Shown piece after piece: positions 3,324-16,411 of a stretch of 64,000 nt of DNA. This DNA is from Octopus vulgaris (Eukaryota). The position numbers and the translations under genes were made by a program. The notes beneath the pieces were generated by a model that was given only the letters and a program-made list of their open reading frames with translations, did no database searches and was not told the origin of the DNA. Numbering within the stretch: the stretch's first letter is position 1; each line of letters starts with the position of its first letter. Where the stretch lies: contig OX597827.1 of NCBI GenBank assembly GCA_951406725.2, positions 61,256,001-61,320,000 of the forward strand. The letters run 5' to 3'.

Positions 3324-3344
3324 ATATGTACGAAGACAATGGAT
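3324..3344 (+). CDS. Ferritin-like gene, 21-nt microexon (ICTKTMD), phase 0/0
   Basis: ttttcaaattgtctttgcag|ATATGTACGAAGACAATGGAT|gtgagt; strong acceptor and donor; joins the downstream exons in one open frame. Confidence 0.7.
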
Positions 3345-3701
3345 GTGAGTATAAACACGGAATACTTCAGCTTTTGTTTTTCACATTTATTCCTAAAAAA
3401 CATAAACAGAAATCAAGTAGATGAAAAAGAAATGAATGCTTTGGTTATAGTTATCAATATTCCCACAAATAACACTGTGTAACACTGTTGTATAACAGTT
3501 GAATGTTACACACACACACACACACACACACATATATATATATATATATATATATATATATTATATTAAATTAGAGATAAAACCACTATTAGGCAAATCA
3601 AACAATGAAAAACTTAAGCCAATACATAAAAATAATTAATTTATATTATTTTAAATATATATCAAAAGTATTAAAAATTTAATAAAAGATAATGAGTAAA
3701 A

Positions 3702-3770
3702 CACTACGATCGTTTCATGGCTGTCCAATTCGTAATAATTCGAGTTATAGTTACAGTCAATCTTCAGGTG
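3702..3770 (-). ncRNA. Type I hammerhead ribozyme motif
   Basis: on -: CAC-CTGAAGA-TTGACTGT...ACAGCCAT-GAAA-CGATCG-TA-GTG; stem II partly decayed. Confidence 0.65.
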
Positions 3771-4410
3771 ATTGAAATATTTATCTTAGCGAGGTTTATA
3801 TATATTGGTAAAAACGGTAAGATAACAAAAGAAAGAAAGAGACCTCGAAATTATGTAAATAGAGGACATTTATCTGTAAAATAATATGTGACAATTATTC
3901 AATAGCCAAGATAAAACTCTGAGTTTCGGATGCCGAGGTGGAAATCCACAACACAATCTTGCACTTTTATATTAGTAGCAGATTTATAACACAGTAATTT
4001 CACCTTTGTATAACGGTCTTTTTTCATAGCATTTTTCAGATGGCCAGATAACCGAAGAGATGGTGTTGTGGATTTCTACCTCAGCATCTGAAACTCAGAG
4101 TTTTATCTTGGCTATTGAATAATTGTCACATATTATTTTACAGATATATATATATATATATATGTATATATAGGCACCCTGTGTCACACAAATGGCACCC
4201 ATGTTGGTGGCACATGAAACTACTCATTACACTGTCAGAGTGGTAGGCATTAGGAAGGGCATCAAGCCATAGAAAACCATGCCAAATCTGACTGAAGTCT
4301 GGTGCAGCCTTCCAATGTGCCAGACCAATGAAACTGTCCAACCAACGCCAGCATGGACAATGGACGTTAAATGACGATGATGATGATATATTTTTAGGTA
4401 CATGTATGTA

Positions 4411-4977
4411 TTGGGTTGTCGAGAAAGTTCGTGCCGATTTATAGTAGCTTACCTTTTGACTTATTTTAGAACATGCTTGAGTCCATAAAAGAGTATTTGA
4501 CTACACCTCCATTTAGAGCACAGTTCAAGCTATCTTTTCGTGGAAAGAGGTTTATGTTCCTATAACCTGTGTTAATTCTGTAACCCTTTAAATTGGAAAA
4601 TAAGAAAGTTCACTTTCGGCACTTGATACTTTGGGAACCAGACAAAAATTGCTGCAGCTCGGCTGGGATGCGTTACCCTCACTCTCCATACTCACCAGAT
4701 GTTGCTCCTTCAGATTTCCACTTATTCAGGTCTCTGCAGAATAGTCTTAATGGGAAAAATTTCAATTCCTTGGATGATGTAAAAAAATACCTTGATGAAT
4801 TCTTTACCATAAAATCCCCTCAATTCTGGGAAGAGTGTATTTTCAAGTTAAAGGAAAGATGAAGACACATTGTGCAACAAAATGGCTCATATTTGGTTGA
4901 TTAAAAATGTAATGGCAAATATTTATTGACCTTTTTCTTTCCTTTAAAAATCGGCATGAACTTTCCGGACAAACCAA
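4411..4977 (+). mobile_element. Internally deleted mariner transposon
   Basis: about 30-bp TIRs (TTGGGTTGTC...GCCGATTT) with TA flanks; N-terminal HFRHLILW fused to C-terminal PYSPDVAPSDFHLF; isolated TIR near 57765. Confidence 0.9.
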
Positions 4978-5507
4978 TATATTTGTGTATGTGCTTGTAT
5001 ATGTGCATGTGCGTGTGTATAAAAATGAAAATAAAATAAAATAAAAAATTAATGAGTGTTGTATATATATATATATATATATATATATAATGAGTGTTGT
5101 ATATATATATATATATATATATATATATGTGTGTGTGTATGTATCAAAATAATTCAACAGTGTAGCAGTGTCACACAACACCACCCCAACTTGGTTAAGG
5201 GATCTTCTCTTTCAAAATATTTGGTTAATTCATTGCTGTTGGTGTCATGTGAAAATCACCCACTACACCCCATAAAGTGGTTGGCATTAGGAGGGGTATC
5301 CATTTTGAGAAAGAATGCCGAAGCCGACAGCAAAGCTTTTGAGTTGCAAGCTCCTGTGAAGGAGTCCACCCAGGTCAACATGGAATGAAGACGTTAAATA
5401 ATGATAACACAATGATATATACATACTTACATATATATATATATATATATATATATATACATAAATGTATCTGTAAATGTAATATGTGACAATTATTCGG
5501 TAGCCAT

Positions 5508-5568
5508 GATAAAACTCCGATTTTCGGATGCCGAGGTGGAAATCCACGCCACCCTCTCTTCAGTTATC
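5508..5568 (-). ncRNA. Type I hammerhead-like motif (variant; second copy on + at 4047-4107 has a CCGAAGA core)
   Basis: on -: GATAA-CTGAAGA-...-GAAA-ATCGGAG-TT-TTATC; stem I extends as GCCA/TGGC. Confidence 0.6.
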
Positions 5569-13665: not shown

Positions 13666-13767
13666 GAACCCATCAAACCTTATCGAGCATTAGAGTTTCT
13701 CCAGCTATCAAATGTGAAAATGATACATAGAATTATTACCCATATAATAAATAAGGATGACAAACAT
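13666..13767 (+). CDS. Ferritin-like gene, helix C exon (EPIKPYRALEFLQLSNVKMIHRIITHIINKDDKH)
   Basis: cttttctttacccag| ... |gtaagt; 102 nt, phase 0; ends in KDDKH like ferritin KNDPH, at the conserved phase-0 intron position. Confidence 0.8.
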
Positions 13768-14799
13768 GTAAGTTTCGTTTTTGGATTTGGTTTGCAAGAT
13801 TCTTTATATGAGTTCGTGTGTTGAAGCATATTCTGTTGTGTCTGGGGAGAGTAATTTTCTTTTTTTTTGCCATATAACGTAACACACTCACCAGTAAAAT
13901 TTCCACTTTCTTTTTTTTTAAGAACAGACAAGCACACATATGCAAATATGGACTGACACACATGACCATATAGACACACTCTTTACTCCACACAAGGACA
14001 CATATGGAGACACGGATCTACACATATAGAGATGCACATCCATCCATACATACAAACATGCTACATAGTTGCATAACACACACACACAGACATGCACACA
14101 CAAAGAGACAGAGGTGCTTGCATATACAAACACACGCTCACACACACACACATACATAGAAAATACACAAACACGGACATGCAAACACATGAATATACAG
14201 GAGACATACATACAGATGCACACAAACACATATATACATACATACACATGCATACATACATACACACATACATACGTACATGCATGCATGCATATGCACG
14301 CACACACACACTGACCCACACACATACTCTTTTACTCTTTTACTTGTTTCAGTCATTTGACTGCGGCCATGCTGGAGCACTGCCTTTAGTCGAGCAAATC
14401 GACCCCGGGACTTATTCTTTGTAAGCCCAGTACTTATTCTATCAGTCTCTTTTGCCGAACCGCTAAGTGACGGGGACGTAAACACACCAGCATCGGTTGT
14501 CAAGCAATGCTAGGGGGACAAACACAAACACACACACACATATATATATATATATACATATATACGGCAGGCTTCTTTCAGTTTCCGTCTACCAAATCCA
14601 CTCACAAGGCATTGGTCGGCCCGGGGCTATAGCAGAAGACACTTGCCCAAGATGCCATGCAGTGAGACTGAACCCGGAACCATGTGGTTGGTTAGCAAGC
14701 TACTTACCACACAGCCACTCCTGTGCCTACAAACAAACAAACAAAACAAAAAGGAAGGCAAAGTCAACTAACCCTGTGTATGCGTGCTGGAGGTTTCCA

Positions 14800-15174
14800 C
14801 GATGGCTTCACTACACATGTATACAGACAGCAATTCTACATAGCAGTGAAATGTGGGCACTGAATAGAGAGGACATGTGAAGGTTAGAAAGGAATGAGAT
14901 TAGTATGCTCTGCTGGATGTGTAATGTAAGTGTACATGTTTGACAGAGTGCTAGTGTTTTGAGAGAGAAATTAGGCATTAGAGGAATTAGTCTCTGTGTG
15001 CAAGAGAGAAGACTGTGCTGGTTTGGTCATGTGATGCAGACGGATACCGACAGCTCCGTAAAGAAGTGCCGATCTCTCAAAGTAGCTGAAAGTGGGAGAC
15101 CCAGGAAGACATGGAATGAAGTACTAAAGAACAACCTCAGGATCCTGAACCTGTATGAAACTCTCGGACCTTGA
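14800..15174 (+). mobile_element. RTE LINE C-terminal fragment
   Basis: AILHSSEMW...RRLCWFGHV...GRPRKTW; same family as the 6386 copy. Confidence 0.8.
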
Positions 15175-15450
15175 ATCACTCTGTTTCTTCTGCTAAATAT
15201 TAATATATATATATATATATATGTGTATATATATATATATATATATATGAGTATAAGTAATACTAAGTAATTAAGGGTTTAGCAACGATTTGCCTCACCA
15301 CACACCGAATTTAGAAATAGCAGTCAAAGAGTTATAGCTATTCTTTCTACTAAAAGGGAGATCTCAGTAAAACCACAGCACTTGAAAGGCAAACACAGAC
15401 AGGCAAGAGAGAAAGAAATGACGGCAATCTATCATACAATTTTTAAGTCA

Positions 15451-15541
15451 CCTACGGACGTACGTTTCGAAATTAAGTTTTAGGAAAGCATAAGAATTAG
15501 ATAATTATGTCTTACCCAACTTCTTTTCTCATCAGCGTAGG
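15451..15541 (-). ncRNA. Type I hammerhead ribozyme, apparently intact
   Basis: on -: stem I CCTACG/CGTAGG; CTGATGA; stem II GAAA.../...TTTC; GAAA; palindromic stem III ACGTACGT; GUC triplet; within a (TA)n-flanked repeat. Confidence 0.85.
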
Positions 15542-16243
15542 ACACTATATATATATATATATATATATATATATATATATATAGGCGAGGAAAAATTATA
15601 AAAAGGCAGAATGCTAAATTGAAGGTAAATTTTAATAAAAATGGGTGTATAGAAAATTTTTTAAATAATAAAAAAATATTTAATAAAAAAATATTTAAAA
15701 AATGTTTTTTTAATTTTCCATACACCCATTTTTATTAAAATTTATCTTCAATTTAGCATTCTGCCTTTTTATAATTTTTCCTCCTATCATTTCTCCATGT
15801 GCAGTCAACACAACCCCACCATTTATTGATTTATATGTATATATATATTTATGGGATGACCCAATATATATATATTTAAAACTTTGGAGTTTTATATATA
15901 CATATATATATATATATATATATATATATATATATATATATATATATATATATATATATATATATATATACATAATTGACAACCAGTGTTAGTTCATTTA
16001 TGTCCCTGTAACTTGGTAGTTCGGTAAAGGAAAGTGATATAATTAAATGCCAAACTTGAAAATTAGTTCTGGGATCTGTTCAACTAAAACCCTTCAAGAC
16101 AGTACTCCAGTGTGGCCACACCTCAATGGCTGAAACAAGTAAAAGAAGTTAAAATTGCTTTATCATTAATGAATATATTAATTAATCATCTTCCATCTCT
16201 CTTCAGTTTTGAAATCACTTCTATTTAATTTTAATTTTTGCAG

Positions 16244-16411
16244 ATAACCTACATAATGAAGAAAGTCTTTTTAAACCATCTTCACCATCAAGTTAAAGAA
16301 TTAACAGATATGACGACGAGGCTGGCTTCAAACGATCCTTTCATAGAGTTTTTGATGGACAAATCATTGAGATGCTCCCAGCCAAAATATCAAGAATTTT
16401 ATACAGTTTGA
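16244..16411 (+). CDS. Ferritin-like gene, last coding exon, helices D-E (ITYIMKKVFLNHLHHQVKELTDMTTRLASNDPFIEFLMDKSLRCSQPKYQEFYTV*)
   Basis: ttaatttttgcag acceptor; helix D aligns ungapped to ferritin LCDFxExxFLxEQVxxIKELGDxxTNL, followed by EFLMDK matching EYLFDK; TGA at 16409-16411. Confidence 0.82.
   Translation: MTYIMKKVFLNHLHHQVKELTDMTTRLASNDPFIEFLMDKSLRCSQPKYQEFYTV

Follow-up and report, generated by a model that had tools for sequence, protein, structure and literature searches.

A stretch of 64,000 nucleotides of the Octopus vulgaris genome (2.8 Gb; contig OX597827.1, here G000:C14, positions 61,256,001-61,320,000; hereafter the window, from whose base 1 exon positions are counted) was found to carry the last six of the 14 coding exons, exons 9-14, of a gene which, as far as identity alone is concerned, very probably encodes a paralog of the secreted octopod ferritins devoid of a ferroxidase site. 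The initial annotation of this DNA described the gene as hidden and missed by ORF finders, which proved incorrect: records of O. vulgaris, O. sinensis and Argonauta already list it as an uncharacterized protein, but do not recognise it as a ferritin. Two database proteins were 100% identical to the last exon, and the cluster of these holds P0003 (CAI9733177.1, a 259-residue O. vulgaris model), P0001 (the O. sinensis model) and an O. bimaculoides fragment, all of them unnamed or 'uncharacterized'. A search of 1.84 billion representative proteins added an ortholog from Argonauta hians, P0013, which is 40% identical with conserved blocks and also uncharacterized; a third match in that search, of 1929 residues and without any matched stretch, was set aside. 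No orthologs beyond Octopus and Argonauta turned up in database searches of limited sensitivity.

Gene structure is the strongest evidence for ferritin descent, the sequence by itself being weak. P0003 maps exactly on the 14 coding exons, with exons 1-8 all upstream of the window, where the gene starts 24.3 kb away, and its end at base 16411. The reading of the six window exons as phase-0 exons with canonical splice sites and one open frame was confirmed: AG stands before each of them and GT after each internal one, their lengths are all divisible by 3, frame 0 is open through all six with stops in both other frames of the three larger exons, and their peptides agree with P0003 letter for letter. 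The eight upstream exons, which the initial annotation had expected to supply the 5' end, were recovered and encode a signal-peptide-like N-terminus and helices A and B. As read from the sequence, this N-terminus has a basic start, about 15 hydrophobic residues and small residues at -3/-1 in both Octopus and Argonauta. Intron positions and phases are those of all four secreted ferritin paralog genes on the same contig (4/4). The common layout opens with a signal-peptide exon that ends in phase 1, followed by the exons of helix A and helix B (the latter 147 nt in the paralogs, 141 here), small phase-0 insert exons of which the first has 36 nt (resolved in 3/4 paralogs, and so here), a helix C exon which stops two codons past a conserved Asp, and finally a helix D/E exon. 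Introns stand at the three sites usual in animal ferritins, namely behind helix A, behind the helix B exon and behind helix C. The ferritin descent proposed earlier was thus supported by this layout and by the structural matches of the predicted model, although the first four exons then listed (exons 9-12) belong to an inserted loop and not to the ferritin core.

With a profile built from 37 unrelated cytosolic ferritins, P0003 scored 10.5 bits and beat 2000/2000 shuffles, and 12 of its 15 weak sequence matches in the Protein Data Bank (PDB) were ferritins, spread over both halves of the protein. Half-protein profiles made from cytosolic ferritins alone were weak, with 14/100 and 8/100 shuffles reaching the score, while those with the paralogs added were reached by 0/100 and 2/100. 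ESM Atlas features gave ferritin at 0.89 with 10/10 best family matches in one clan, which, being below 0.9, was treated as a lead only. The ESM Atlas model, which is independent of our alignments, matched MiaE, a member of the ferritin-like clan, with template modelling (TM) scores of 0.46/0.57. AlphaFold2 with a 13-sequence alignment predicted five ferritin helices (residues 25-55, 59-85, 175-197, 203-230 and 236-247), that is, a four-helix A-D bundle plus a short E, at a mean predicted local distance difference test (pLDDT) of 69 and a predicted TM score (pTM) of 0.69. The top 15 structural matches of this model among 48,161 chains were ferritins, bacterioferritins and artemin (Z 16.2-18.1). 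Alignments A5 and A6, which split helix C into islands, were excluded from folding, and a homodimer prediction in which the alignment was not used scored 0.00 and was counted neither for nor against.

The ferroxidase ligands, in H-chain numbering E27, Y34, E61, E62, H65, E107 and Q141, were located by motif in the cytosolic set, in which 37/37 sequences keep six ligands and 36/37 keep Q141. When exon ends were used as anchors, P0003 carried Y39, L46, Q71, S72, L75, N186 and L217 at these seven positions (0/7). The Argonauta ortholog retained 1/7, and four secreted paralogs retained 7/7; a fifth paralog row, P0010, had been wrongly anchored and is not included in this count. E61, E62 and H65 were replaced in 48/48 alignments and the helix D anchor was likewise stable in 48/48. 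The earlier claim that the ferroxidase site has been lost therefore stands, with none of the ligands kept in this register and at most one in the alternative alignment considered below. Exon anchoring also reproduced the earlier manual assignments of D131 to Tyr, E134 to Lys, E140 to His and Q141 to Leu, the three-fold channel pair D131/E134 corresponding to Y207/K210. The loss of D131 is real but not special, as this residue is also absent from 4/4 scored secreted octopod ferritins, all of which have full ferroxidase ligands. The L-chain nucleation positions 57, 60, 61 and 64 are acidic at 2/4 in Octopus and 3/4 in Argonauta, with 57 and 64 acidic in both species (E67/D74). Octopus and Argonauta share H216, H219 and E223 on helix D, spaced as i, i+3, i+7.

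The gene has diverged far from its relatives, identity to the paralogs being merely 12-18%. In a tree of 48 rows built on helix B and D/E columns (P0001, P0004 and P0009 were left out), its stem branch has a length of 3.9 changes per column, which makes its placement unsure. Divergence between Octopus and Argonauta amounted to 1.23 changes per column as against 0.12 for a paralog pair, a difference of about 10x. The core is nevertheless kept between the two genera, with 27/55 identities in helix D/E and 24/47 in the helix B exon.

The more unusual part of the gene, which the initial annotation did not notice, is the insert with its duplicated micro-exons. Between helices B and C, exons 4-12 add 74 residues, and seven of these exons, six of 21 nt and one of 15 nt, sit in tandem copies of one exon-plus-intron module. 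This module was found at least 7 times in the genome, always within this gene, and a transposon origin was ruled out on that lower-bound count. The micro-exons account for 47/259 residues, so that most of the coding region lies outside them, and the AlphaFold2 model is predicted to be mostly disordered along their stretch (pLDDT <50 at 107-113 and 119-150). Exon identity over the 15 pairs that the 21-nt copies form is 40%, as against 93% and 83% for the adjoining intron bases. In 10 pairs of 5 copies, mismatch was 0.52 in the exons versus 0.20 in the far flanks, away from splice sites, with P<0.005 in 8/10 of these non-independent pairs; three disjoint copy pairs gave Fisher P values of 5e-5, 0.008 and 4e-5. 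The four closest copies showed a synonymous difference (pS) of 0-0.26, which is flank-like, versus a non-synonymous difference (pN) of 0.36-0.77, and all 15 pairs together gave a pS of 0.48 and a pN of 0.63, near saturation (0.71). P0003 and P0001 differ at two of 210 residues, both inside micro-exons, and only 538/20000 shuffles of the micro-exon bases were stop-free. Gene conversion of the introns might mimic the gap between exons and flanks, yet it leaves the low synonymous difference unexplained. Taken as a comparison of sequences, the excess of coding change points to diversifying selection on the micro-exons.

The last exon was present in 20 runs from 7 studies, none recorded as RNA. In all three small RNA-like runs (3/3), from 3 studies, a single contig of 1.1-1.2 kb joins exon 12 to exon 13 and exon 13 to exon 14; exon 13 was compared with four runs, and the fourth, a large run serving as DNA control, had no cover of this exon and was uninformative. 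Of the junctions that the initial annotation wanted confirmed, 12-13 and 13-14 were thus seen in RNA-like contigs, these two being the whole of the RNA-like evidence, and the micro-exon junctions rest on the two database models, P0003 and P0001, both of which include all seven micro-exons. A second O. vulgaris model, P0002, has exon 4 lengthened by 22 codons (L013:1523-1624, upstream of the window) and skips the seven micro-exons. It may be a genuine isoform or a prediction artefact, and the lengths of the RNA-like contigs do not separate P0002-type from P0003-type transcripts.

Table 1. Features of the ferritin-like gene. Positions are relative to the window; upstream positions count back from it, 0 being the base before window base 1.
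Feature	Position	Strand	Length or remark
Exon 1, signal-peptide-like	-24296 to -24224		followed by phase-1 intron
Exon 2, helix A	-18722 to -18649		
Exon 3, helix B	-12479 to -12339		141 nt
Exon 4, first insert exon	-8476 to -8441		36 nt
Exons 5-8, micro-exons 1-4 of 7	starts -7005, -5361, -1674, -402		21 nt each
Exon 9, micro-exon 5/7, B-C loop insert	3324-3344	+	21 nt
Exon 10, micro-exon 6/7, B-C loop insert	6154-6174	+	21 nt
Exon 11, micro-exon 7/7, B-C loop insert	10084-10098	+	15 nt
Exon 12, last insert exon	11238-11282	+	45 nt; predicted extra helix (residues 153-169 in model)
Exon 13, helix C	13666-13767	+	102 nt
Exon 14, helices D and E, 13-residue C-terminal tail, stop	16244-16411	+	168 nt including stop
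Module copies (exon plus flanking intron)	3159-3444, ~5943-6185, ~9825-10197	+	four more upstream of window
Two ATTAAA hexamers, candidate polyadenylation signals	16600-16615	+	

Several results weigh against the reading of this gene as a rapidly evolving ferritin without ferroxidase function. No Pfam PF00210 match was obtained at E<=10 for the exons, for P0001-P0003 or for P0013, and the ferritin family match named earlier as a check therefore failed; profile-profile comparison gave a probability of just 6.8%, and the ortholog P0013 alone was not significant against the cytosolic profile, 401/2000 shuffles reaching its score. The AlphaFold2 alignment included ferritins, which renders fold and register partly circular, and single-sequence AlphaFold2 failed (pLDDT 39.6, unusable), so that the structural check proposed in the initial annotation succeeded with the ferritin-containing alignment and failed without it. 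Alignment registers are soft, as MAFFT gave the exon-anchored helix A register in 0/48 alignments and paired E107 with N186 in 10/48. With cytosolic rows, MAFFT placed the conserved E180 on E107 in 5/6 settings at the cost of a gap within helix C, in which case <=1/7 ligands are kept. The earlier statement that no Glu matches E107 accordingly holds in the paralog-anchored register and fails in the MAFFT one; N186 was preferred because the Pro at the start of helix C then aligns gap-free in 3/4 paralogs. E61, E62, H65 and Q141 are lost in either register, and a di-iron site is therefore unlikely. Finally, pS exceeded pN in 4/15 micro-exon pairs, which are not independent. The locus was also not among the 11 genome matches to PF00210, the last exon alone gave no ferritin among its 5 weak matches to PDB sequences, and Foldseek returned nothing at E<=0.001, every row that it listed being a ferritin.

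As regards function, we give about an even chance to the reading that the protein is secreted and serves, without catalysis, as a ferritin scaffold which binds an extracellular partner through its outer B-C loop. In this reading, an octopod paralog of the secreted ferritins has replaced its ferroxidase ligands, and its product, likely secreted, would no longer oxidise Fe(II) but could still assemble into ferritin-type dimers or cages, alone or with the catalytic paralogs. The rapidly diversified B-C loop, which by general ferritin structure would face outward, would then be displayed to an extracellular partner, and diversifying selection might arise from the binding of a changing partner, e.g. 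a receptor or a microbe. According to a chiton preprint (10.64898/2026.10.23.761458), the B-C loop has a part in receptor binding by H-ferritin, and motifs within this loop are proposed to serve in receptor recognition and selective uptake. An extended form of this idea, a variable recognition particle in which every subunit of a ferroxidase-less cage displays a loop made variable through micro-exon duplication, in-frame exon skipping and positive selection, and which would act in immunity, gamete recognition or tissue targeting, appears improbable. If it were true, the small-exon duplications in a catalytic paralog and the second degenerate ferritin-like gene described below would represent the same trend.

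A light-chain-like subunit, co-assembling with the catalytic secreted paralogs and helping to nucleate the iron core with the loop as a tolerated decoration, is rather unlikely but has some evidence on its side. The acidic residues E67/D74 at nucleation positions 57 and 64 are kept in both species, the same contig carries four catalytic secreted paralogs, and the ESM Atlas matches are arthropod ferritins, one of them named light-chain-like. Oxidation and nucleation are divided between H and L chains (PMC11719527, in extract), insect secreted ferritin has two subunit types (PMC4783870 and PMC4508113, in the parts available), present 1:1 according to the latter, and the accessible text of the chiton preprint (10.64898/2026.10.23.761458) reports four secretory subunits in the native ferritin. 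Such a subunit, however, would sit uneasily with the low identity to the paralogs and with an Octopus-Argonauta divergence some ten times that of a paralog pair, and it leaves the excess coding change of the loop unexplained; the basic character (isoelectric points (pI) 9.4, for the mature protein, and 9.2) also speaks against it, although one catalytic paralog is basic too (8.8). The conserved, aromatic 13-residue tail might instead suggest an artemin-like chaperone or a yolk or storage protein, with the cage as an inert, stable container. Artemin has 1/7 ferroxidase residues and a cavity-lining C-terminal extension (PMC9742257, as excerpted), the model matches it at Z 17.2, level with ordinary ferritins, and snail yolk ferritin combines a signal peptide with a loop insert (PMC10799875, in part). 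We regard this as a minor prospect, since the tail is far shorter than loop L' plus helix F of artemin and a storage protein would give no reason to expect diversifying selection on the loop.

The residues H216, H219 and E223, identical in both species, could bind a different metal (Zn or Cu) at a new helix D site; this suggestion from sequence is very doubtful. In the H-chain structure, this face of helix D points to the cavity. A functionless duplicate decaying under relaxed constraint would account for the very long stem branch and for the absent Pfam match, but it is hardly credible given a frame open across 14 exons, spliced RNA-like contigs in 3 studies, an ortholog with conserved blocks and the rarity of stop-free micro-exon shuffles. 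Moreover, the exons diverge faster than, and not like, their own introns.

The closest known systems are the octopod secreted ferritins on the same contig (P0006/P0015, P0008/P0018, P0005/P0020 and P0009/P0010), which resemble this gene in having a signal peptide, introns of the same positions and phases, small phase-0 exons for the B-C insert and no D131. They differ in their PF00210 match, in keeping 7/7 ligands in the four scored as against 0/7 here, and in their shorter inserts; the seven 15-21 nt exons here come from a different duplicated module than the insert exons of the paralogs. The vertebrate L chain lacks the ferroxidase centre and insect Fer2LCH is not known to have one. The nucleation face is acidic in part in the gene described here, which is far more diverged from its catalytic paralogs. 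Gastropod yolk ferritin of Lymnaea and Biomphalaria, as far as the extract of PMC10799875 goes, is alike in having a signal peptide and a loop insert, of 42 residues, whereas the insert here is longer and contains duplicated micro-exons. Chiton secretory ferritins also combine a signal peptide with a loop insert (10.64898/2026.10.23.761458, in part). Artemin of Artemia (PDB 7rvb) shares the ferritin fold predicted here, the loss of nearly all ferroxidase residues and a C-terminal extension (PMC9742257, excerpt); the present gene differs in its predicted signal peptide, its large B-C insert and the shortness of its conserved tail of 13 residues. Schistosome micro-exon genes (MEGs) have secreted products, short exons and, in some members, dN/dS >1 (PMC4350168 and PMC10526429, in their available parts), but here the micro-exons are a minor share of the protein and lie within a predicted folded ferritin. 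The idea that PV1 carotenoproteins of apple snails are ferritin-like found no support in the accessible part of PMC10168382 and was dropped. Loss of the ferroxidase residues is known from the L chain and artemin, and loop inserts from snail yolk ferritin, and every ingredient of this gene has a precedent; for the combination with a micro-exon loop under apparent positive selection no report was found. No publications on this gene were found by accession or by topic in titles and the start of abstracts, subscription journals not being covered, and its accessions are absent from an ink-proteome supplement as far as the stored portion goes.

Other loci gave related observations. A second degenerate secreted ferritin-like gene lies on the minus strand at G000:C14:59,150,756-59,170,600 (L120, L132 and L133); the O. 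vulgaris model CAI9733140.1 runs it together with the ferritin that lies behind it. It has a signal exon and exons resembling those of helices A, C and D/E, and scores 13.1 bits against a ferritin profile (0/2000 shuffles); a search of the gap gave no clear helix B exon. The catalytic paralog P0006/P0015 (G000:C14:59,103,805-59,113,093; L115-L116) has an insert of 18-36 nt exons with tandem duplications of its own. Among its three 33-nt copies, 3-8 codons show non-synonymous and 0-1 synonymous differences, an excess of amino-acid change like that of the micro-exons; the exon is unrelated to the micro-exon module, and isoform X1 of O. sinensis contains one 33-nt copy that X2 lacks. A 169-codon ferritin frame without introns on the minus strand at G000:C15:66,288,919-66,289,338 (L002), in which several ferroxidase and channel positions also look replaced, is possibly a retrocopy. 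A B-C insert containing Cys also occurs in a metagenome ferritin (L073:212-802), which falls, on long branches, next to an octopus secreted ferritin. No further ferritin-like exons stood out in the 264 kb around the gene (best E 0.065). Introns within the window hold what we take, by eye, to be broken mobile-element remnants at 700-2450, 4600-4900 and 6410-7660, with gypsy-like reverse transcriptase, mariner-like and RTE-like long interspersed element sequences.

An octopod protein called uncharacterized and missed by Pfam thus now has a family and a testable role. The gene offers a clean example of the growth of a loop by tandem micro-exon duplication, in which the coding bases outrun the flanking introns that serve as a built-in neutral clock. 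As the B-C loop is the proposed receptor-recognition site, it also makes targeting or recognition by mollusc secretory ferritins directly testable.

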